From Schmidtea polychroa (taxonomy: Eukaryota), in assembly GCA_044892525.1 (NCBI GenBank), contig CM097885.1, positions 181,226,001 through 181,290,000 of the forward strand: a stretch of DNA of 64,000 nt, read 5' to 3'. Shown one piece after another: positions 3,685 through 64,000 of the stretch; the first letter of the stretch is position 1, and every line of letters begins with the position of its first letter. The translations under genes were made by a program, and so were the position numbers. The notes under the pieces were generated by a model. That model saw only the letters and a list, made by a program, of their open reading frames with translations, was not told where the DNA came from and searched no databases.

Positions 3685-6675
3685 TCAGTTATGGTTGAAA
3701 GCCAACCTATGAATCATTAATTTATGATCTTTAAATTCTTTATCACTTAGACCTTTTATATATTCAGAATCAGTATTAAAATATTTAAGTTCTAAACATA
3801 TAGGATTAAAAACTTGAGAATATAAAGGTTTCTCGATTTCTCTCTCGGGATAAATAATTTCAACATTATAAATATCAAGATCAGTAATCTTTGTATCATA
3901 TAACTTATTCAACTTTTCTAGATTTTTTATTATAGGGATTAAATTATTTCCAATAGGTAGAGTTGTCTTTAAATCACTTAGTATGAATCTCTTATCATCA
4001 TAATTTGATAATGATACTTTTTGAGATTCTATCAAGTGAATATCATGGTTTTCACTTTTAAGCTGATGTATTTCATCAATTTTATCTTTATGATTTGGAT
4101 TCAATGTATCTATATAATCTTGATGAGAAAGATTCTTTGCCACCACTCTCTGTATTCCTTTACATCTGTTATCCTTTACAGGTTTTTCTTCTTTAGGAAA
4201 TATAGGATATCTATGTGTAATGGTTTCTTCTGTTTCTGGAGTTTTAAATATAAATGATCTAGTTATAAATTCAGGGTTTCTAAATGTTTCGTATGAATAT
4301 TGTTTAGCACGAATAAATATTCCATTTTCTATAGGAGTAAAAGGTTTTTCATCTTTAAACGAAAATAGTTCTCCAGATGAATTTATTAAATTTGAAAGTA
4401 TAGGATTTTCTTTCATATCTTTTTGTAAATCATGAGTTCTTATTGTTAAAAACATTGAATCTGTATCCATTGCATGCATTGATATATTTGCTCCGTATAT
4501 AGGTTGTAAGATGTTATAATATGTTTCATACATTTGTAATTTTGAAAGTTCTAAAATTGTAAACCCTATAAATATTGGTTTGTTATATGTTTTCTCATAA
4601 TTTTTTAATTCTACTGCAGTAAGATTTTCAGAAAATACTTGTGCGTTTTTAAATGTAGGCTTTCCTAGCATGCGATTATAACGTTTAATATCTTTGGTAG
4701 TATTTGTTAGGAGTTCAATATGAGTATATTTATCAACATTCTCCATTGTTTTCCCAAATACTGAATTGTTTAAAATTTTATAATTATTATCTTTAAAAAG
4801 GTTACCTTCTCTTTTTGCAATGTTTCGACACCTAATGTTCTCCTCGATAAAAGCTTTCATGAATGGAGCTTGTTTAAATCTTATGACACTATGAACTTTT
4901 TTTAATATCATTCCTCGTGAGAGATAAAATTGGAGGAGTCTATAGTGACAAAGATAAAACCTTCGATCTGTTTGATCACAAAGAAGTTTCATTGTTGGAG
5001 GTTTATCTTGTGAGATTTGCCATTCAGAAAGTTCGTTTATATCAATCTTTCTTCTTATGGGAGCTAAAGGAAAATATCTTGTTCCTGATTTTATATCATC
5101 TGGATAGTCGAGGTCACATTCTATAAAGTAACCTATTGGAGAATCTTTCGATGTTGAAAGTATTTCTTTCATAAGGTCATCTGTTGGGTTCTCTATTTCA
5201 GTGAAATCACTCATTGGTAAATATTGAGTCATAATTCCTGAATATAAAGCTGTTGCATCTATATAAAGTATAAATATAGGATTTTTCATTGTTTCTAATA
5301 ATTCTTTTAATTCCTCATTGTTAATTTTCATATATGGATCATCAGGGTGTTTAGATAGTCTTCGGCTAGTAGTTATTGCATTTCTAGCTTTTATTTCTCT
5401 ATTCCCCATTACTGAAGAGACTCCTCCTCTAATGTTTGTTTTAATTTGGTTAAACATATCGAGGTTAGTTAAAAGATCTATAATTTTATCACCTTCTTCT
5501 ATATTTGAAGTCCAAATGGTATATAACATAGTATCCCAAGCTAAAGAGGGTGCAGTTATATAATTATAAGGTTTAAGAACAAAAGATTTTGTAAATTCTT
5601 CAAAGCAATCTGCTAGAATATAAACATCCAAGGATAAATACATACTTGTATATTCTCCTAAAGTTTTACACTTGAATAATTCCCACATTTTATTTGCTCG
5701 AGAATATTCTTGATTTGTAATATGATTTTTTTGAAGTTGTGAATAGAAATCTTCTTGGCTAGGAAGACTTGTTTCATTATATCTTTCAAACGAGTCAACA
5801 TAGTCATAAGGATATATTCCTTTTGCTAAACATGTAGGATATTCTTCTAGAGGAATATTATTTTTTTCCAAGAATTCTCGAGTGATTTTAAAATTTTCTG
5901 GTTTCATTGTTTTTGCTACTGCATCTAAAGACATTTGGAGAAAGTTTAACGAGTCTATAAATTTTAATTTTCCATATTCAATTGATTTATATTTTTCCTT
6001 TGTTAAGCCGATAACTTTGAAAGAGTTTTTAGCATTTGCTGCGAGGTGTTTAATAAATAGATGTATGTCATATCCAAAAAGATTATGAAATATAACAGGT
6101 ATAAATTTAGGAGTATGGCAATTAAGATTGCAATTTTTATGAGCTGCTCCTCGATAATTATTTTCCTTTTTTAAATGATCATGATCTATAACTTTTTCAT
6201 CAGGAAGAATATTCTGTTTACACATCCAACAGTTGGAAGTATTTTCATATTCTTGTTGTTGTTGATTAGAAATATTTTGAGGATACTTTGTTTTTAATAT
6301 TTTTAATATTTCATGTTCTAGATCATTTATATTTTTAGTAAAATGATTCAAGACTTCTTCAGGGGTACCTCCTAGAATTGAATATTCTCTAGATTCTATG
6401 AGTTCAGGATAATTACTTTTAAATAATAATTTATAAGCAGATGGTAATTGTTTAGTTTTTTTAACACTATTAGGTTTATTTCTTTTTCTTAGAAAGGCTT
6501 TCATCCTCTCTGGTTTCATCTTCTCTCCTGAGGAGTTCCATAAATCCATGAGTTTATTTTTTTCTATTATTTTTAAATATTGATAAACCAAATCTTGTTT
6601 ATGGTTTATAGATTCAAAGTCACCATAAAGAACTCCAACTGTTTGTAGTAAATTTGAAAAGTTTTTCAAATACAT
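3685..6675 (-). CDS. Protein-primed family B DNA polymerase (pPolB), main body
   Basis: YGDFESI (ExoI), EndoVII-like CWMC...DHDHL...RGAAHKNCN, FHNLFGYD (ExoII), YLSLDVYILAD (ExoIII), YIDATALYS (motif A), KILNNSVFGKTMEN (motif B), MDTDS (motif C). Confidence 0.95.
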   Translation of the reverse strand: MYLKNFSNLLQTVGVLYGDFESINHKQDLVYQYLKIIEKNKLMDLWNSSGEKMKPERMKAFLRKRNKPNSVKKTKQLPSAYKLLFKSNYPELIESREYSILGGTPEEVLNHFTKNINDLEHEILKILKTKYPQNISNQQQQEYENTSNCWMCKQNILPDEKVIDHDHLKKENNYRGAAHKNCNLNCHTPKFIPVIFHNLFGYDIHLFIKHLAANAKNSFKVIGLTKEKYKSIEYGKLKFIDSLNFLQMSLDAVAKTMKPENFKITREFLEKNNIPLEEYPTCLAKGIYPYDYVDSFERYNETSLPSQEDFYSQLQKNHITNQEYSRANKMWELFKCKTLGEYTSMYLSLDVYILADCFEEFTKSFVLKPYNYITAPSLAWDTMLYTIWTSNIEEGDKIIDLLTNLDMFNQIKTNIRGGVSSVMGNREIKARNAITTSRRLSKHPDDPYMKINNEELKELLETMKNPIFILYIDATALYSGIMTQYLPMSDFTEIENPTDDLMKEILSTSKDSPIGYFIECDLDYPDDIKSGTRYFPLAPIRRKIDINELSEWQISQDKPPTMKLLCDQTDRRFYLCHYRLLQFYLSRGMILKKVHSVIRFKQAPFMKAFIEENIRCRNIAKREGNLFKDNNYKILNNSVFGKTMENVDKYTHIELLTNTTKDIKRYNRMLGKPTFKNAQVFSENLTAVELKNYEKTYNKPIFIGFTILELSKLQMYETYYNILQPIYGANISMHAMDTDSMFLTIRTHDLQKDMKENPILSNLINSSGELFSFKDEKPFTPIENGIFIRAKQYSYETFRNPEFITRSFIFKTPETEETITHRYPIFPKEEKPVKDNRCKGIQRVVAKNLSHQDYIDTLNPNHKDKIDEIHQLKSENHDIHLIESQKVSLSNYDDKRFILSDLKTTLPIGNNLIPIIKNLEKLNKLYDTKITDLDIYNVEIIYPEREIEKPLYSQVFNPICLELKYFNTDSEYIKGLSDKEFKDHKLMIHRLAFNHN

Positions 6676-6698
6676 CTAGGGATTATTAGGCATTTTAA

Positions 6699-7964
6699 TT
6701 AAAGCTGGATCATCTTTTCACAAAATCTTGTATATTTAATCATAGAGTTTTTAGTTGTTGAATAATGAAGACATCTTTTACATGTTCCTCCTCCACTAGT
6801 TGGATTCTCTGGTGATGTAAAAGCTTGAAAGTTTTTTATTAAAACATAATGTTGATTATTTTGTTGTTCCAAGATTAAAAGATATATCTCGTTGCCCTGT
6901 GCTCCGTTATCCTTGGTTCCACTATCTGAAATATAAATTGGAATAATTTCTTTCCCTATAACATGTTCATAAATATTAAGTTTAAGATTATTTAATTTTT
7001 CAAATTCTGGAATGTCTTCTAGTTTCATTGGGTGTTTGAATCCTTTGGGAAATATTAATTCATTTTCATATTGTTTGTATTTTGAAACTCTTTGGGGATT
7101 TGTTGCTTGAGGATGTAAATGTGCAAGTATTGACCAGATGAAACATTTGTTATCATTATTCTGTACATTTATAACATTTTTAGATTTAAAGGGTGTAGGA
7201 ATATAAGATTTAGGATTGGGTGGTAATCCTCTCCAATAATCAATCACTAAAGTTTGGAAAGAGTTGAATACTAAGTTTGAATCTCCTAATTCATTTTCTA
7301 CTTCCTCTTGTTTTGCTTCTGCTGCTTTAATTATTTCTTTGATGGTTTTATCAAATCCTTTAATTGAAAATAAATATTTAAAAGGTATTCCAATTTCAAC
7401 ATCTAAGGGTGTTGTCTTTTCTTCTGCTCCTCGCCAGTATTTTGCTTTGATTATAATTTTATATTTTATAACATTATACCTTGTCGGTTTATAATTTTTT
7501 AAAGCTTCAGTGAAAGAATTTTTAATATTTTTTTTATTTTTATTTATATATTCTCCAGGAGTTGCAGGCCCATTAATTTTTAATTGAAATTCATCTATAT
7601 GATTAAAATTATCCCAGTTATATTTTTCTCTTTCAACATGATCAGGTTCTCCTTCTGAATGACATTCCTCATCGTCAGAATTTTGTTTTTTATTTTTACA
7701 TTCTTTTATATGTTCTAAATAATAGAAATTTAGTTTTGTTGAAAAGTTACAATGAGGACATGTAAATATTTCTCTATTTTTCCCGATACAATTTTCAAAA
7801 TGTTTATTATATCCAGAATGTAGAAATCTTCCTTTACATTTAGGACAAACTTTTGAATTTGTATCATTAAGATTGTTTTCTTTTAATAAATGAGCTTTCG
7901 ATTTTAAGTGAGAAATTAATCCAGTTTTATTTTTAAAAACTTTATTGCAAATATTACAATTCAT
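6699..7964 (-). CDS. N-terminal portion of the pPolB polyprotein with zinc fingers, separated by a frameshift and a stop
   Basis: Three C2H2/C2HC-like fingers (CNIC..HLKSKAH; CPKC..HFENC; CPHC..HIKEC) and INVQNNDNKCFIWSILAHLHP..RVSKY..HYVLIKNF..CKRCL, which normally precede ExoI in one Polinton PolB ORF. Restoring one base near 6712 gives ..CEKDDPALIKMPNNP*(TAG 6676-6678)MYLKNF in frame with PolB. Confidence 0.75.
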   Translation of the reverse strand: MNCNICNKVFKNKTGLISHLKSKAHLLKENNLNDTNSKVCPKCKGRFLHSGYNKHFENCIGKNREIFTCPHCNFSTKLNFYYLEHIKECKNKKQNSDDEECHSEGEPDHVEREKYNWDNFNHIDEFQLKINGPATPGEYINKNKKNIKNSFTEALKNYKPTRYNVIKYKIIIKAKYWRGAEEKTTPLDVEIGIPFKYLFSIKGFDKTIKEIIKAAEAKQEEVENELGDSNLVFNSFQTLVIDYWRGLPPNPKSYIPTPFKSKNVINVQNNDNKCFIWSILAHLHPQATNPQRVSKYKQYENELIFPKGFKHPMKLEDIPEFEKLNNLKLNIYEHVIGKEIIPIYISDSGTKDNGAQGNEIYLLILEQQNNQHYVLIKNFQAFTSPENPTSGGGTCKRCLHYSTTKNSMIKYTRFCEKMIQL

Positions 7965-8061
7965 TTTTAGAAAAAAATTTTTTATTGGATATCCTGTTTT
8001 GATTTTTTATGTTTTTATATTTATTTTCATAATGTGACAGTCTAAAAAATAACAAATATCC

Positions 8062-8146
8062 AATCCTAGATAGCGCAGTGGGCTAGACTGACACAGTGGT
8101 TCAAAATGCTAGCGGTTCAAATCCTAACTGTGGTTAGTTTTTTTTT
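8062..8146 (+). ncRNA. tRNA-like Pol III unit 1
   Basis: A box TAGCGCAGTGG (8071-8081), B box GGTTCAAATCC (8114-8124), tRNA-like 43-nt spacing, T9 terminator (8138-8146), imperfect terminal stem. No canonical anticodon arm. Confidence 0.6.
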
Positions 8147-8286
8147 CAACATAAAATAATATTAAAAATTTGAAAATAATAGTGTGGGTATCTTATATTT
8201 ATAAAGTACTTGTATATTTTATTTTATTTATTTTATTTTATTTTATTTTTTTATAAATTAAAAATTAAAAAAATGACAAAAATTCA

Positions 8287-8370
8287 AACCTTGATGGCGC
8301 AGTGGGAATAGACTGGCACAGTGGTTCAAATGGATAGTGGTTCAAATCACATCTGAGGTTAGTTTTTTTT
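8287..8370 (+). ncRNA. tRNA-like Pol III unit 2
   Basis: A box TGGCGCAGTGG (8295-8305), B box GGTTCAAATCA (8339-8349), T8 run (8363-8370), terminal stem AACCTTGAT/ATC(T)GAGGTT. Diverged paralog of unit 1. Confidence 0.55.
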
Positions 8371-8537
8371 CAACATAAAATAATATTAAAAATTTGAAAA
8401 TAATATTGAAAATAGTGTGGGTATCTTATATTTATAAAGTACTTGTATATTTTATTTTATTTATTTTATTTTATTTTATTTTTTTATAAATTAATTATTT
8501 TTTAAACATAAATATGAAAAAAAAAATATTGAAACGG

Positions 8538-8610
8538 GTGATGGTGGCGAACCGGTAATTATCGCCACCTGTCTTTCGAACACCCCCGGATCGATCCCGG
8601 TAATGTGCAC
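8538..8610 (+). ncRNA. tRNA-like unit 3 (more GC-rich, different sequence)
   Basis: A-box-like TGGCGAACCGG (8545-8555), perfect 4-bp D stem GCGA/TCGC, partial anticodon arm TGT-CTTTCGA-ACA, T arm CCGG-ATCGATC-CCGG. A-to-B spacing is 43 nt. The acceptor stem is poor. Confidence 0.4.
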
Positions 8611-8845
8611 ATTTATTTCTCAGTTGTTTTCGGACCTCTTTCGAATTCGCTTTCGAATTCATTTGTACTTTCGAGCAGCACACTTAAAACGCCGATGAAA
8701 TCGACTTCGTGAGCGAGAAGCGAATAATAAGGTGTGCTGCTATTATCGGATTGATTCTGATGTATGAGTCTGGCCAGCTTGTATATTGGAAGAGATTCGA
8801 TAAACGAAAGAGGTTGATAAATAAAAAAAATGATCCGGATCAAAA

Positions 8846-8905
8846 AAAACTGTTGAGGGGACAGTGAAAAAAAAAAAAATACCACTGTCCCCTCAGAGCA
8901 GTTTT
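8846..8905. other. Strong hairpin
   Basis: TGAGGGGACAGTG (8854-8866) / CACTGTCCCCTCA (8883-8895) is a perfect 13-bp stem with an A-rich 16-nt loop, extended by AAAACTG/CAGTTTT. Confidence 0.85.
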
Positions 8906-9194
8906 ACTATTTTTCATTTATTTTTTAATTTATATAATTTAAAATCAATAATCTGATAAAGATCAAATAGCCCTCTAACTTTTTCATAATGCCATTTTCT
9001 TTTCTATTCTCTTTTTAGTTTGAAGCTTTTGAGTTTGAGGCTTTAAAGATTAAAACAGTTAGAGTCATTAAGGGTGGTTGTTTTCAAAATATAGGGTTAA
9101 AATACTATAAAAGTATAAGTTTTAGGTTGTTTTTCTAATAGCTTAAGTGATTTGGAGGCATGTTTTTGTTGGGGGGCTGTTTTGGTTGGGTATA

Positions 9195-12100
9195 TAACCA
9201 CACTACTAAACGGCCCCTGCCAGACAACCTCCTTTTCACATCTAATATTGACAATGAATCCGCATGATGGTCACAACACGCAATAAAAGCATACATCTTC
9301 TCCTTTGCCATGAAAAAATCAACCATCTTCGTCGACCCTTTCATCGGAAATGCCCTCATCCAGCATAACTATAAAACGTTCTTCTCAACCTTCCCTTTCC
9401 ATGAATTTGCGGAGTGGCATGAAATCATCATACCCATGTCTAATGGACAAAATAGCTGGTTCTTTTTCTTCCAAGATAAAAAACAAAAACTTCCATTACT
9501 CATCGACCCATTAATTGACAACAGCCTTCTGACGCACTCAAAGCTTGCCAATAACCTACTTGAAACTATCCTCGACCTTCAGAAAATTGTCTTACCCATA
9601 TCCATCGAGCTAAAAGAATCCGAATACCCTTGCTGCAGTGTCCCCGCAGATTCAGCTTTCTTCATCTGTCACCTCATTGAATGCCTCATCACACGACACC
9701 CCTTCACTAAGCCCCACATTCCTTCCATGACCCTTGAACTTAAAACAATTATTAATAATTATATTAAAAATAAAATACCAAATAACGATATACGTAAATA
9801 CAAACAATTTATAAAGGATATTATTTTTAATCTCACTGAAAACAAAACAGACGCCGACTCTGCTATTTCCGAAATGGAAAAAATAAATGCAAACATCCAC
9901 CCTTTAAAATATATAACCAAAAAGCCCTCTGATATCATACATAAAAAAACCCGTAATGAGAATGAATTACTCTTCATTAAAAGAAAAAAATACATCATTA
10001 ACCCAAAGGAGGAAGTCGCCAAGATCCTGAGAAATGCCCCCTCTTTCCAGAAACCGACTATGGATAATATTCTGAAACTCTTTGCTGGAACCCTCTCAAC
10101 TTGCTCACCTAACCCCTTGATTAAACTACCCTCACTTCCTGAAACTCTTTCATGCGACCCCCTTGACACTGACGAAATTAAGGCAATCTTCAGGCAACTC
10201 AGCAATACAGCCCCAGGTATGGATGGCATCTCTTTATCTGACTGGAGAATACTATCACCAGACTTCGAATTCCTTCTATCCCTGTTTAACAACCTCCTTC
10301 GCAACACTACATGCCCTATGTCCTGGAAAACATTTCGCTCTAAACTAATTCTAAAAGCTGGAAAGGCCGAGACAAGCCACGAAGCTAGCTCCTGGAGACC
10401 TATATCTATCATGAACACTTCATACCGTATATTCTCCTCACTTCTTAACAATCGACTTCTGAATTGGATAAAACTTGGCAATCTACTGTCTAACAACCAA
10501 AAAGCCATATGTGCACCCGATGGATGTGCCGAAGACAATTTCACTTTACACCTTGTCAAAGATGCTGCAATCCGCAATAAAACTGACCTCCATATCATAT
10601 GGCTTTATATTTCCGATGCTTTCGGATCCTTACCTCACTCTCTTATATGGCACACTCTTACCAATATGGGACTCAACCCAAACACAATTAAACTTATAAA
10701 TGACATGTACAACGATGTGCAAACTATTTTTGAATGTGAAGGAGAACGCTCCCCATCTGTCCCCATTGTAAAAGGAGTTAAACAAGGTTGCCCCTTATCT
10801 ATGACAATCTTCTGCCTATGTATCGACTTCATACTCCAACATGTCTCAAAAAACCACCCCTTCCTATTCCATGGGCACAACATTAGCATCCTTGCCTATG
10901 CCGATGATATTTTACTGATTTCGGACTCGTACTACTCAATAAACCTGGTACTCTCCGAAACGACACACCTTGCTTCACAAGTTAACCTTCGCTTTAAGCC
11001 TTCGAAATCCGGATACTTTCATATCAACCATGATGATAATTATAGCCCAATCCGTCTATACGACGAACTCCTCCCCAGAGTTGATGACTCTAACTTCTAC
11101 CGATACCTTGGAGTTGATTTCACGTATAAGGTAAGACACAACATTGAGGAGAGACTTGAAAATGCCCTAACTGATACCAAAACGATTCTTGCCTCCCATC
11201 TGCATCCTGCCCAAAAACTTAATGCCTACAAAATATTCATTCACTCTCGCCTTACCTATATCTACCGCAACTGCGAGATCCACCACAGTGTACTCGACTC
11301 CAAAAGAAACCTGAAAAATAATGCAGGCTTAGCCCATAGGGGCGCCACCCAAAGACTAAAATCCATAATCAAAAATGCCATTGGCGATAAAATTTGTGAG
11401 CTCAACAACAACTTCCTATATACATCAATCAAACTTGGAGGACTGGGTATAACATCCCTCATTGATGAATACCTTATCCAGGGAATTGTCCACCTTATAC
11501 GTGCCCTCAACTCAACCGACACTGATTTTCGCAACCTCGTCTTATCTGAACTCTGCCATGCCAGAGGAAATGGCAACATCAACTCTGAATCTCTTGGCTG
11601 AATGGCGACTCCACTAAAACCTTTCCATCCAAATCTCTCTTCTCAAAATTCAGGAAATCATCCATAAGACTGCGGCTCAAATATGGGATCTCTACTAAAA
11701 TAGTCTTTATCAAAAATTCCTACCAACTGGAGATTAAATACAAAGTCCGAATTAATTACTTCACCTCTAACCTTAAAGATACCTCATCTGAAATCCATTC
11801 TATTATTAGCCTCATTTATGCCGATAGATGGTCCAAAATGAAATGCCAAGGACATATAGTCAAAAGCATCGGTAGTAGTAGCATTGCTAGTTTTTTCTTC
11901 AAAACGGACTTTCTAACTGACCCGCAATTTATCTTCCTGATCCGAGCACGCAACAACATCCTAAAATTAAACTATACTCCCCGTCGAATAAAATTTAAGA
12001 AATCTACCCTATGTAGGCGCTGCTACGCTCATCCCGAAACACAAGCACACATCTTTAACCACTGCCCTGCTAAATCCAATGCCCGCCGAAACAAACATAG

Positions 12101-12630
12101 AAATGTCCTCCAAGCTGTCTCTGACTTCCTTCTCGAACATAAATACGATATTGAATCGAACAAACCCCAATGGGCATCAACACCACCCTCATCCCTGACC
12201 TCCTTATCAAAACCCCGCGGAATAAACTCATACATATTCTCGACATAAAGGTCCCTTATGAAAATGAAACAAATTTTGAACAAGCTAGGAATAACAACTT
12301 CGAGAAGTACAAAAATTTAGCAATTGATATAGGTCATGCACACAACTGCAAGACCCCTCTGCTTACCCTTGTTATAGGTACACTTGGAACATGGGACAGA
12401 AAGAACGACAAAGACCTAAGGATAATTGGTCTGAGTAAAGCAGAAATTAAAGCCCTAGCAAAAAAAGCCTGTACAGCAGCCGTAATCAGCAGCTACCACA
12501 TATACAGAGAACACATCTACAAAGACTAACACATACCCCCATATTTCCTTATATATTATCTATCTCTCAAAGCATTACCTTATTTATATCAAATCTATTC
12601 TCTACTATACTAAAATATTAACTATCCCTT
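9195..12630 (+). mobile_element. RLE-type non-LTR retrotransposon (NeSL/Utopia/R2-like), inactive; ends uncertain
   Basis: RT, CCHC knuckle and restriction-like endonuclease in the canonical order, with a C/A-rich plus strand from ~9195. No TSD identified. Confidence 0.9.
9310..12529 (+). pseudogene. Retrotransposon ORF (Ulp1-like, RT, CCHC, RLE) with two frameshifts
   Basis: RT motifs APGMDGI, WRPISIMNTSYRIF, WL(Y)ISDAFGS (catalytic Asp to Tyr, codon 10606-10608), GVKQGCPLS, LAYADD, YRYLG. Frameshift ~11593 (continues WLNGD...RWSKMKCQG). CRRCYAHPETQAHIFNHC. Frameshift ~12168. PDLLI..ILDIKVPYE..EKY..VIGTLGTW. Confidence 0.9.
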
Positions 12631-14655: not shown

Positions 14656-14942
14656 ATGGCTTCAGATGTTAAATGTGATCCTTCAGTTACAACACAGATT
14701 GCAATATGCAATCTGTGGACTCAACGAACAGAAGGATAGAATTATTCATTTGGAAACTGGTGAAATAGGTACTCCTTATGCAAAATTCAGAGTACACATG
14801 ATCGAAACATGCTAAAGAAGGTTCCTATGCATTATATGACTATCAGGGTACTTTGGCGTTTATTTCAAGGAAACCAGAAACAATGAAAATCAATTGTCGT
14901 ATGATTATGGCTGCTTCAAAATCAAAGATCGCAACTAAAATC
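14656..14942 (+). pseudogene. Cofilin/ADF-like pseudogene fragment
   Basis: MASDVKCD...YAICGLNEQKDRIIHLETGEIGTPYAKF...[37 protein letters not shown], read across frameshifts, matches the ADF/cofilin MASGV / RYALYD / FISWxPE / KMxYASSK motifs. Confidence 0.65.
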
Positions 14943-15161
14943 TATCCAAACAGTCTTATTTCTGCATCAAGGGATAAATCCATGATTATTTGGGATGACT
15001 TTGAAAATGATGTTGTTATGTCATATGGTGGTCAATTTGCATTGTCTGAATCATGGGACGGACCTTTAGTGTTGTGGGATTTATCCAAATTTATCTTCTT
15101 GCCAAAAATATATTGGCTATGTGCTGCAACTGGATCGTCTATCCAGATTTGGGAGTCGGAA
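14943..15161 (+). pseudogene. RACK1: RACK1 (GNB2L1) fragments, internally deleted
   Basis: [17 protein letters not shown] (cf. ILSASRDKT.I.W), [25 protein letters not shown] (cf. [25 protein letters not shown]), [17 protein letters not shown] (cf. [17 protein letters not shown]). About 150 aa are missing between the last two. Confidence 0.85.
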
Positions 15162-15298
15162 ATTCTAATTTTCCTTGAAATGTCATTAAATTGTTCTCTT
15201 TCTAAAGAAACTCCTGAAGTTCCAGTTCTTAATAGATTATCAGACATGTTTATGAATAAAGGTTAATCGAAAAACATTTGATGATAAATGATCTAGAT

Positions 15299-35339: not shown

Positions 35340-36289
35340 TGATGATTTCATTGATCTCCTCTTTAGTGTTGATTGTTGGCCGTCTGTTTATGTTGAGAAT
35401 TGCCCCTTTAAATCTGAAATTTTTCTTTCTATTGGCTAAGATTTTAATTAAATTTTTTTCTTTCTTTCCTTGGTTGACATTGTTAGAGATGTCTGTATAC
35501 CGAGGATTTTCAAACAGGATCTAGACGTTCTTTAATTCTTTGGTGCAAGTTTCTGAACATACTTCCAATGTATATTTCTTTGCATTCATTGCACGTGGTG
35601 CACTAGACAACATTTTTTCAGAAACATAGTTTTTTCAGTGTCTGGCAGTTTTCCATTGTGCAAATGTTTTCTTTTGTTGTGTTGTTTGCCAGAGCTTCCC
35701 TCAATGTCCAAGATTTATGTGCTATATAATTTGGAAAGCCAGTGCGTTAAAGTTCTTTCAGGATCTTGAAATCGAGTATGCCACTGATTAATGGAATATT
35801 CAGATAAAAATATTTCTTAGTATAAAATGATGATTGCTTGGTAGCAGCATTTATTATTTAAAACAATAAAATGATAATTTAAGCCTTTTGCTGCAAATAA
35901 TGTATTTAATGAAAGAATTTTCGACTATACGATAGTCCTTGTCAATTGACAAGGACTATCGTATAGTCGAAAATTCTTTCATTAAATACATTATTTGCAG
36001 CAAAAGGCTTAAATTATCATTTTATTGTTTTAAAAAATATTTCTTCTTTATTGTGTTGTATCTTTAGATTTTTTGGGGTTGAATTCATTTTTTTAATGTC
36101 CTTATTGTGATATCCGTTTCTGTGTAGGACTTTATTGAAGTTTAATTGCTGTTTATAGTGCTCATTTTCTTCAATATATTGACTGGTTATCCTTTGTTTC
36201 TCGTTTTTTATGACATTTACTTTCTGTAAGTATGGAAATGCCGATCTATTGTGCAAAAATATTTCTGTGTGAGCTAGTTTTTTGTAGAA
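35340..36289 (-). mobile_element. Penelope-like element remnant (GIY-YIG end), interrupted by a palindromic insert
   Basis: Nucleotide-level similarity to 61965-62680. FPYLQKVNVIKNEK..FNKVLHRNGY parallels FNKILHRNGY in the other copy. Confidence 0.85.
35857..36034. repeat. Perfect 178-bp spacerless palindrome
   Basis: Centre GTCAA/TTGAC between 35945 and 35946; the arms pair without mismatch out to 35857/36034. Confidence 0.95.
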
Positions 36290-61618: not shown

Positions 61619-61751
61619 TAAAAAACTTTTAAAATTTTACTGAAAATTAAAGTTAAAAATAAAATAAAATAAATACCATTTAAAATTCCAAAATGACACA
61701 AGCTAAAAAATTTTAAATTTTTTTATACAGCTTCTATAATTAGCTTCTAGA
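61619..61751. repeat. Left arm of a long inverted repeat flanking the Penelope element
   Basis: Reverse complement of 63868-64000, roughly 95% identical by eye. Confidence 0.9.
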
Positions 61752-61949
61752 AGCCTAATAAAATATTTGAAAATATTCTAAATAAAGCCTCCAATAACTA
61801 CTTATATATACTATTTAAATATTTCAATAAATGTGTCAATTCTGATTTTTAAATCCTATTTTTTAAAATTTTCTATATTATTTTAATTATTACTTTTTAA
61901 TTTATTATATTTTTTTTAAATTTCTTTATATATTGTCAGTTATTCTCAA

Positions 61950-63835
61950 TGACAACAGATCAAATTCATGATTTCATTGATTTCTTTGATCGTTGATCTT
62001 TGGCTGTCTGTTTATGATGAGAATTGCTTCTTTGAATCTGACATTTTTGTTTTGGATGTTTCCATTAGCTATGATTTCTATTAAAATATTTTTTCTTTCC
62101 TCTGTTGGCTGACACTGCCGGAGATGTCTGCCCAACGAGGATGTTCCACCGGGATCTAGGTGTTCTTTAACTCTTTGGTGCAAGGTCCTGAGTGTACTTC
62201 CAATGTAAATTTCATTGCATACATTGCACGTGATGCAATAGACGATGTTTTTTCTAAAGCACATATCTTTCGGTGTCTGGCAGTTTTTCATTGTGCAATT
62301 GCTGCCAGAGCTTGCCAGAGCCCTTCTCAATGTCCAATATGTATGTGCTATCCGAATTGAAAGACCGGTACGTTTAAGTTCTTTCAGGATCTTGAAGTCG
62401 AGTGTGTCGCTGATGAATGGGATATTCAGATAGAAATATTTCTGATTCTTTTGTGTTAATTCTTGGGGTAGAATTCATTCTTTCAATGTCCTCACCTTGG
62501 TATCCGTTTCGGTGTAGGATTTTATTGAAATTTAATTGTTCTTTAAAGTTTTCGTTTTTTCCGTGCATCGATTGGCTATTCTACTTTCTCGTTTCTTATG
62601 ACATGTACTTTCTGTAAGTATGGAAGCGCTTACCTTTGGTTCATAAACATTTCTTTGCGAGCTGGTTTTCTGTAGAACCCGTATGTTGGAGTATTTGCTT
62701 CTATTTTAATTCTCAAATCCAATAAATTGAGGGATCCATCTTCTTCCGGATATTCGATTTCGAACTTAATATCTCGGTGAGCGGCATTGAATGTATGAAA
62801 TATTTCCTCCGCTTCTTTTCTGCTTTTGGTCGTGATGAAGATATCATCTACATATCTTGCATAGAAACCGATGGGTTGTATGGTCCTCAGTGTCTGTTGT
62901 TCGAGGTTATCCATAAAGATGATTGCTAGCAGTCCTGATATGCTAGAACCCATAGGCAGACCTTTAACCTGTTTATAGATATTTTGCTCAAAGGTAAAAT
63001 AGGTGTTCTCGAGGATAACAGTAAGTAGTTTGGTGATATTCTCGATATTCATTTCCTTTATTAACAAGTTGCTTTTTCTACGACATCAAGACTGAATGGG
63101 TATTTGAATTCCCTATGAAAAGTTATGTTATTATTTAATCTTGTCATGGGGCAGTCGCTGCTTTGAAGATGGTGTGGTATCGTGTCCAATAAAGGTTTCA
63201 AGATCTTTGCAAGGACCCAACTTGTTTTAGTTGTTGGCCCATTTTTGTTGGACACTATAGGTCTAATTTTGATAGCAGGACCCACTTTGAGTTTTAATTA
63301 GGTGGTAGGAGTTGGGAAGATCAGAATTTTTTGTGACGAACCTGCTGGTTATTCTGTTGTTGAGCTTCATTTCCAAAGCTATAGCTTTCCATACTTTGCT
63401 GATCTTCATTTCGATGGTGTTTGGTGACATGCGGCTGACTTTCTTGTACGTTTCGATGTTGCCGAGGTGTTCGTAACCAGCTTCACAGCAACGATTCTTC
63501 TCTATATTGCAAAATTCTCCCCCCCCCCCTTGTCACTTGGTAAGTAAACATATGGTTTCTTTTTAAGGGATTTTAATATTGCTTGTTCGTCTTTCGTTAG
63601 ATTTGAGAGATATGGTTTTCTTCTTTCCTTCTCAACTATTTCCATGATTTTGTGACAGACCTTTGAGAGTGTTGAATCTAATTCTGCATCAGGAATTGGT
63701 TGATAGAGTTTATCTGTGTTCATACTGGGAGCTTTCTTTCGCTATTTTCATTTTCATGAGGTATTGTATTGCTTCATTTGATCTGGTACGCAATGCAACA
63801 AAGAGCTGTTTTAAAATTGAGGATGGCTGTTTCTA
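61950..63835 (-). mobile_element. Penelope-like retroelement (RT and GIY-YIG), frameshifted
   Basis: NLTKDEQAILKSL..PSDKG, KIRPIVS, FSLDV, YFTF..YKQVKGLPMGSSISG, RYVDD, LNLLDL, YRKP; GIY-YIG NIVYCITCNVCNEIYIGSTLRTLHQRVKEH. Confidence 0.93.
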
Positions 63836-63867
63836 TTTATTCAATTCTATTTATTTCAATCTATTTC

Positions 63868-64000
63868 TCTAGAAGCTAATTATAGAAGCTGTATAAAAAA
63901 ATTTAAAAATTTTTAGTTTGTGTCATTTTGGAATTTTAAATGGTATTTATTTTATTTTATTTTTAACTTTATTTTTCAATAAAATTTTAAAAGTTTTTTA
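63868..64000. repeat. Right arm of the long inverted repeat (runs off the window)
   Basis: Pairs with 61619-61751. Confidence 0.9.

Follow-up and report, generated by a model that had tools for sequence, protein, structure and literature searches.

Why would a Polinton end in a tandem array of degenerate tRNA-like units, and do such units belong to the element or to its host? In the window analysed here (64,000 nucleotides of the AT-rich, 781-Mb genome of Schmidtea polychroa), three such units lie near the start of a protein-primed DNA polymerase (pPolB) gene. The original prediction read them as small Pol III RNA genes of the element, comparable to adenovirus VA RNA, and kept a host tRNA-pseudogene or SINE array as the alternative. 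We find that the units are borne by the element, that two of them are conserved as promoters, and that the structured candidate RNA lies behind the third.

The carrier element

The first 9.2 kb of the window come from an adintovirus-type Polinton of 15.3 kb, of which they form the right part. The element has the genes of a Polinton/Maverick: pPolB in the window, and a double-jelly-roll capsid (PF21738), a retroviral-type integrase (PF00665) and an A32 packaging ATPase (PF04665) in the neighbouring stretch, L021. PolB is split in the window copy into frames of 421 and 996 aa and forms a single frame of 1441 aa in another copy. The integrase frame (L021:6898-8310) also carries an N-terminal phospholipase-A2-like domain (PF08398). 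The element starts with AGTAGT and ends at window position 9207 with the canonical ACTACT. Terminal inverted repeats (TIRs), AGT...ACT termini and a 6-bp target-site duplication (TSD), features of Polintons/Mavericks, are all found here. The features to which the text refers are as follows.

3685..6675, minus strand: polymerase part of pPolB (PF03175)
6699..7964, minus strand: N-terminal part of pPolB with a zinc-finger-like start; points away from the cassette
8039..9207, plus strand: right TIR; both ends of other copies share it, with matches that run from 8039 to about 9207-9210
8062..8146, plus strand: unit 1 (type A); A box 8071, B-like repeat about 8099, B box about 8114, T9; no cloverleaf
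8287..8370, plus strand: unit 2 (type A); A box 8295, T8; tandem duplicate of unit 1
8538..8610, plus strand: unit 3 (type B); tRNA-like head with its A box (8545) in an extended D hairpin and a B box at about 8588
8627..8630, plus strand: T4 behind the unit-3 head; intact in 104 of 105 distinct copies
8634..8815, plus strand: multi-branched folded domain with outer stem, small hairpin, hairpin 1 (about 8673-8741) and hairpin 2
8743..8803, plus strand: hairpin 2, a 61-nt G-U-rich stem-loop of pre-miRNA size
8848..8914, plus strand: hairpin 3, with an A-rich loop, then T4 (8902) and T5 (8910), the predicted final terminator
9208..9213, plus strand: 6-bp TSD; its six letters are identical to those before the left terminus
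L021:3889-4817, before the window: left TIR
L021:5440-5510 and L021:5200-5285, minus strand: units of types D and C with A and B boxes; also at L009:772-852 and L009:1016-1094

Whether the cassette lies within the TIR had been proposed as a check, and it does: the repeat at 8039-9207 contains all three A/B-box units, which it is nearly certain are hence carried by the element. Sequence beyond the terminus varies between copies. Directly past it, at 9310-12529, lies a broken non-LTR retrotransposon of R2/NeSL-like type with RVT_1 and zf-RVT domains and a putative restriction-like endonuclease motif. A decayed WD40-like frame at 14883-15266 looks similar to RACK1. Further along the window are a near-perfect 94-bp palindrome (35852-36039) and, from 61619 to 64000, an element with 133-bp inverted arms that is related to the same repeat family.

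A 24-mer from unit 3 has 2,713 exact copies in the genome and a 28-mer of the unit-1 type has 656; reversed controls have none. Among the first 30 matches of each kind along C1, two sets that share many TIRs, internal Polinton DNA (capsid-side or PolB-side) lies upstream in 30/30 unit-3 and 30/30 unit-A places, and the element terminus is also seen in 24 and 27 of them, respectively. Outward-facing pairs 9-20 kb apart number 17 among the 86 listed unit-3 places, against one inward-facing pair.

These places bear directly on the idea that a Polinton inserted into an array of tRNA pseudogenes or SINEs that the host already had. Real host tRNA genes do occur in tandem arrays, which lends that idea some appeal. 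However, the TIR encloses the units and the TSD lies beyond it, the units are mirrored at both ends of the element, Polinton genes flank every sampled copy, and the flanks past the terminus change from copy to copy. A Polinton-free cassette was found at none of the 60 sampled places, and the marks of a tRNA-derived SINE (dispersal independent of other elements, a TSD of its own, a tail) are not seen, Polinton DNA being present in 60/60. For units 1-3 in the sampled copies the host-array reading is refuted, and we leave it virtually no probability. Host tRNA arrays were themselves observed at L030, L053 and L057, with a 424-bp period for Lys-TTT and a 278-bp period for Arg-TCG.

Promoter boxes of units 1 and 2

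The three units are reproduced where they had been placed, with A boxes at 8071, 8295 and 8545, tRNA-like box spacings of 43, 44 and 43, and T9 and T8 runs beginning at 8138 and 8363. The A-box/B-box pattern matches the 64-kb window at these positions only (0 matches in 9208-64000). Shuffling of 8000-8700 gave one match in 3 of 5000 trials and never more, a flattering figure given that the pattern was defined after the units had been viewed. The first A box lies 107 bp from the start of the N-terminal PolB frame (7964, minus strand), in agreement with the predicted placement about 100 bp upstream of PolB and pointing away from it. The units have the A box, the B box placed at tRNA spacing and the oligo-T terminator that mark a type 2 Pol III gene in sequence; unit 3 has a variant B box, and its only T-runs are the T4 and the later T4/T5. 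On the strength of these motifs the units are probably Pol III promoters of the tRNA type. As tRNA genes the window units fail, having no cloverleaf with acceptor and anticodon stems: ARAGORN finds 0 tRNA genes in the window, and Rfam gives 0 matches at E<=1 in 6000-11000. Calls made by ARAGORN at relaxed settings were rejected as noise, since coding DNA scores too.

Units 1 and 2 fold no better than shuffled sequences (z 0.37 and -0.05). Of the terminal stem that both had been said to keep, unit 2 has the paired ends and unit 1 does not. The two differ at 13 aligned positions and their spacers at 0/114, with one 9-bp indel, which bears out the claim that the units diverge more than the spacers between them. 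The tandem duplication that gave rise to the pair is present in some copies only, and type A units have been duplicated repeatedly. Across 108 distinct type A rows, the A box has 0.18 recurrent variants per column, the B box 0.10 and the extra B-like repeat 0.00; the spacer has 0.26, and the remainder of the transcribed sequence 0.35-0.93. Because the boxes vary less than the remaining transcribed parts, selection on type A units is assigned to the promoter and not to the shape of an RNA.

A folded region behind unit 3

Unit 3 heads a region of about 370 nt that is strongly folded to about 8915 and falls largely outside the coordinates first considered. Perfect D and 4-bp T stems had been described for the head; the T stem differs among copies and is broken in at least 50 of 105 distinct ones, and an acceptor stem is absent. 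The idea of element-encoded Pol III RNAs survives in altered form: the units are element-borne and of tRNA type, but the structured candidate is the stretch behind unit 3 and not units 1 and 2.

Folding is stronger than expected over 8538-8832 (z -4.9) and over 8626-8822, where z is -7.0 on the plus strand and -2.7 on the minus strand. Hairpin 2, placed in the multi-branch fold without a long basal stem, folds on the plus strand only (z -5.9 versus +0.9), and its core has 2,927 exact copies. In 105 copies its stem cells contain 794 G-T, 0 A-C and 1 other mismatch; such an excess of G-T without A-C favours a plus-strand RNA over a DNA hairpin. Hairpin 3 folds equally on both strands and is not strand-diagnostic. 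A-rich tracts lie behind the folded domain, and downstream on the hairpin strand within the TIR there is no open frame. The core of hairpin 2 accompanies unit 3 on the same strand, 150-300 bp away, at 83 of 86 unit-3 places.

Variation among copies respects much of this structure. The pair 8682/8733 passes through the series A-T, G-T and G-C, and in hairpin 3 a compensatory swap from G-C to A-T at 8858/8891 is found in 41/105 rows. With rows that are related to one another and a structure predicted from the window copy, the pair at well-paired sites is kept by 14/20 recurrent variants versus 6/26 singletons (Fisher p 0.0025), and common variants in 8634-8815 keep pairing in 8/8 cases (binomial p 0.016 against a transitions-only null); when the test is widened to 8903 the count is 10/12 (p 0.064). 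Recurrent variants keep the pair in only 2/4 cases in the unit-3 D hairpin and 3/6 in hairpin 3. Taken with the predicted fold, these patterns suggest that a hairpin RNA behind unit 3 is probably under selection.

The arms of the hairpins have no match of more than 10 letters to the element's own genes apart from A-rich runs. Identity with a known miRNA was rejected, the weak Rfam matches being chance (for example mir-15 at 13.8 bits against a cut-off of 57). A ribozyme in unit 3 was considered and dropped for want of an Rfam match.

Contigs from four sequencing runs were compared with the natural left end of an element (L009:1-2412). Three runs, under three organism labels, cover the hairpin domain, in runs that were chosen with that very stretch and whose status as RNA is a guess; one covering contig, from organism B, has 252 letters with 31 differences. 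In the fourth run (13 records) no contig matched L009:1-2412. In two runs the summed contig depth of the hairpin domain greatly exceeds that of the distal TIR and of the capsid gene; contig depth cannot rank parts, and we do not count this difference as evidence.

Capsid-side units and the origin of the cassette

Two further A/B-box units, of types D and C, lie between the capsid start and the left TIR. Units sit 50-300 bp from the capsid start, and every unit of the cassette is oriented outward. Type C, which lies outside the window, scores 32.4 bits against RF00005 (cut-off 29); its D and T arms are good, its acceptor and anticodon stems are broken, and around its anticodon loop 12 of 13 letters equal those of a tRNA-Cys(GCA) row in a supplement of PMC7962491. 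To judge by its sequence, type C looks tRNA-Cys-derived, and its Rfam score together with this match points to a tRNA origin of the unit family. Conservation statistics for type D were discarded, type A copies having cross-matched (52 rows).

A piece related to type C also occurs away from the elements, in a 1,245-bp macrosatellite (L206/L207, G000:C1:142001-162000), each unit of which includes about 290 bp that resemble the surroundings of type C at 82%. The B box of that piece is decayed and the unit-3 hairpins are absent; a hairpin domain common to macrosatellite and cassette was accordingly rejected, the shared 290 bp extending over no more than the type C unit. At L021:4743-5039 (minus strand), between units C and A, there is a 98-aa charged, coiled-coil-like ORF whose end overlaps the type A unit and which is present in some carriers and in the cassette-free L114 and L123.

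Distribution among Polinton families

Among distinct loci picked by their capsid, a unit lies upstream in 35 of 51 and is absent in 16, the latter including some that are not judgeable, with letters withheld or with the end outside the locus. Of four cassette-free elements taken whole, three are complete; their TIRs measure about 240-320 bp, and their PolBs share 57-59% identity with that of the window family. On the capsid tree (46 of 54 rows, with 5 duplicates merged and L070, L076 and L096 absent), presence of the cassette requires at least 6 changes. Unit order is shuffled in some copies.

The far ends of seven carriers from the other capsid clade were compared as well. PolB is present in five, in each case 58-60% identical to the window family, and 5/5 of these far ends are without a unit; the other two have no PolB in the stretch. 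In two of the five, matching TSDs mark a single element with short TIRs and a cassette at the capsid end only. One-ended carriers with other PolBs imply that capture into the TIR doubled the cassette in the window family. In other words, the sequences describe a module that sits beside the capsid gene in several families and, in the window family, has been captured into the TIR and so doubled.

Whether the cassette always accompanies this PolB family had been put as a check, and it does not: it is also carried by elements whose PolBs are 58-60% identical, and it is missing from complete sisters. Polinton copies lacking it had been named as grounds for abandoning the link to the element; complete cassette-free elements exist, yet the sampled copies of the cassette are all Polinton-borne.

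Exchange of parts is not restricted to the cassette. In L071, L086, L116, L117 and L089 the capsids are 89-94% identical at the protein level, but the PolBs to which they are joined share only 57-60% identity, and the same group has at least three TIR types, which indicates that Polinton families swap modules strongly. The short TIRs have inverted copies of the terminus as their own boundaries. One locus (L028/L029, G000:C1:258414001-258434000) is rearranged, with three TIR copies, facing PolB starts and other coding pieces between them. Beyond this genome, capsid relatives at 73% identity exist. No A/B unit was found in 22 metagenome relatives (26-52% identity; 62 kb, mostly short contigs without element ends), and no relative was found among viral contigs by protein or motif search.

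Comparison with known systems

The adenovirus comparison holds in part. VA RNA I and II, as far as they are described in the accessible text of PMC7589676, share with the cassette a tandem array of intragenic A/B-box Pol III genes, a proposed tRNA origin, long imperfect duplexes and a carrier lineage with protein-primed PolB. However, a VA RNA has about 160 nt, with box A in the terminal stem, an apical stem and a central domain, whereas the cassette has unstructured units of about 80 nt, or a predicted unit-3 RNA of about 90 or 370 nt in which box A lies in a local hairpin and the folded region follows the boxes. The paired GGGU-ACCC core of VA RNA has both its parts in unit 3 (8536, 8582), where they are unpaired in the predicted fold. 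The cassette, unlike VA RNA genes, is located at element ends, and it matches no Rfam family. VA RNA also blocks PKR and competes with other substrates for Exportin-5 and Dicer. An identity with VA RNA is not supported, since neither the length nor the terminal and central stems fit.

Gammaherpesvirus TMERs are closer. The MHV68 genes, in the account of PMC4337559 that was available, are several tRNA-like Pol III genes clustered at the left end of a DNA virus genome, each beginning with a tRNA-like part at the 5' side and continuing into hairpins at the 3' side, with an alternative stop separating the two. Clustering at a genome end is seen here too, and in neither system are the units ordinary tRNAs, but the layout of tRNA-like head, stop and hairpins is found in unit 3 only, so that hairpins occur in one of four unit types. 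The RNase Z-cleavable tRNA-like fold of TMERs is not seen. The carrier is an integrated Polinton with thousands of copies, no sequence relation to TMERs is seen, and the hairpins of TMERs give mature miRNAs, whereas in our case the hairpin products are predicted only. By this comparison of layouts the cassette resembles TMERs more than VA RNA and is a member of neither family.

Other viral Pol III and tRNA genes differ in further ways. In the accessible parts of the reports, 8,300 PLV/virophage genomes yielded 558 tRNA and 10 miRNA Rfam matches (PMC12220804), and tRNA flags are reported for MELD viruses (PMC8502044). Rfam and ARAGORN detect those genes, which have been interpreted as aids to translation; units 1-3, in contrast, fall below the thresholds of both programs, cannot be tRNAs and are accompanied by a conserved hairpin domain. 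The Pol III pre-miRNA cluster of bovine leukemia virus (PMC12498455, as far as its text goes) likewise belongs to an integrated virus with Dicer-sized hairpins and type 2 Pol III promoters, but its A boxes lie within the hairpin and its B box behind the terminator, whereas in the cassette a tRNA-like head ahead of the hairpins contains both boxes. TFIIIC boundaries, as outlined in the available part of PMC4502379 (fission-yeast IR-L/IR-R and tDNA clusters), are also B-box clusters, which in fission yeast lie in inverted repeats on either side of a silenced domain. Those IR elements do not recruit Pol III; the cassette keeps A boxes, spacing, terminators and an RNA-type fold, and can be one-ended.

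In the literature we did not find degenerate Pol III units or structured RNAs at the ends of animal Polintons, although Repbase reports, subscription papers and supplements may contain them. Short cassette motifs are absent from the accessible content of 8 supplements of PMC5671611, and the unit-3 motif from that of 3 supplements of PMC7962491, both planarian studies.

A proposed function and its alternatives

We propose that the cassette is an accessory, tRNA-derived module that recruits host Pol III, and that the unit-3 RNA acts as a decoy or Dicer substrate against RNA silencing, a reading to which we give a probability of roughly 0.45. TFIIIC and Pol III would load on the A and B boxes and start near 8538. 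The T4 at 8627 is predicted to be a leaky stop; partial read-through would extend transcription to 8902-8914 and yield an RNA of about 370 nt (the tRNA-like head with three hairpins) besides a short form of about 90 nt. As a full stop this T4 may instead separate the head from the hairpins, and VA RNA terminates at four U according to the available text of PMC7589676. Release by RNase Z, as in TMERs, is unsupported because the acceptor stem is absent and the T stem often broken. Units 1 and 2 and the two capsid-side units would be selected as promoters and not as RNA shapes, and the box-only units could serve as extra landing sites for TFIIIC and Pol III or give by-products of about 80 nt. In the weakest step, double-stranded-like RNA from thousands of copies would load or saturate Dicer/Argonaute-type machinery and so aid the spread of the carrier. 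An anti-silencing role of the RNA, taken by itself, is a tentative suggestion. Any benefit must be conditional, because complete elements without the cassette exist. The boldest version, a VA/TMER-style RNA programme of animal Polintons in which some 2,700 promoters produce G-U-rich hairpin RNA that becomes miRNAs or jams Dicer/Argonaute, with the cassette traded between families, we regard as somewhat unlikely.

Much of what is seen at units 1 and 2 would also follow if the cassette acted as DNA, its clustered B boxes binding TFIIIC and, as a chromatin barrier or an open window, shielding the capsid and PolB promoters from spreading heterochromatin, with RNA a by-product. Type A keeps its boxes only, has an extra B-like repeat free of recurrent variants and is repeatedly duplicated, and the distance from the units is about 100 bp to the start of PolB and 50-300 bp to that of the capsid gene. 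The available sections of two papers add that five B boxes in the fission-yeast mating-type inverted repeats, as well as tRNA clusters, form boundaries (PMC4502379), and that planarian Polintons are piRNA/chromatin targets (PMC8532177). Such a barrier accounts well for units 1 and 2 but not for hairpin 2, whose strand-specific, G-U-based conservation it leaves unexplained, together with the kept A boxes, the tRNA spacing and the T-run terminators. A two-sided fence is moreover not general, five elements with other PolBs having no unit at their PolB end, and we consider a barrier function unlikely.

Conservation of hairpin 2 could be explained without Pol III if the RNA belonged to a transcript that Pol II makes outward, or served the element in structure or replication, and the A/B units were mere neighbours. 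The conserved T4 between head and hairpins would fit, as would the equal folding of hairpin 3 on both strands and the A-rich tracts behind the folded domain. Such neighbours would hardly be expected to co-travel at 83/86 places, and the T4/T5 behind the hairpin closes the stretch, with no open frame beyond it on that strand within the TIR; a transcript of this kind seems very unlikely. The patchy occurrence of the cassette (35/51 capsid-picked loci, at least 6 changes on the capsid tree), its sometimes shuffled order and the decayed type C piece in a host macrosatellite would all suit a passenger, selfish or neutral, that passes from one Polinton lineage to another through recombination or TIR conversion and brings its carrier no benefit. 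However, conservation specific to boxes and pairs among shared variants implies selection in replicating elements, and the cassette is never Polinton-free in 60 sampled places, making a mere passenger quite unlikely.

Implications for Polinton biology

Polintons are read almost solely through their proteins and may carry a non-coding accessory layer that standard annotation has missed, since a structured RNA behind a tRNA-derived promoter falls below the reach of ARAGORN and Rfam. Families that carry the cassette at both ends, at one end or not at all coexist in one genome, and its units range from one that still scores as a tRNA (type C) to units reduced to their boxes. If the RNA proposed here does counter silencing, it would help to explain how the element reached thousands of copies despite piRNA/RNAi control, and the path from tRNA to viral non-coding RNA that has been proposed for VA RNA would be visible at several stages within one element. 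An integrated DNA transposon-virus would then possess RNA-encoded counter-silencing, and the cassette would be a living model for the origin of VA RNAs and TMERs from tRNA genes.
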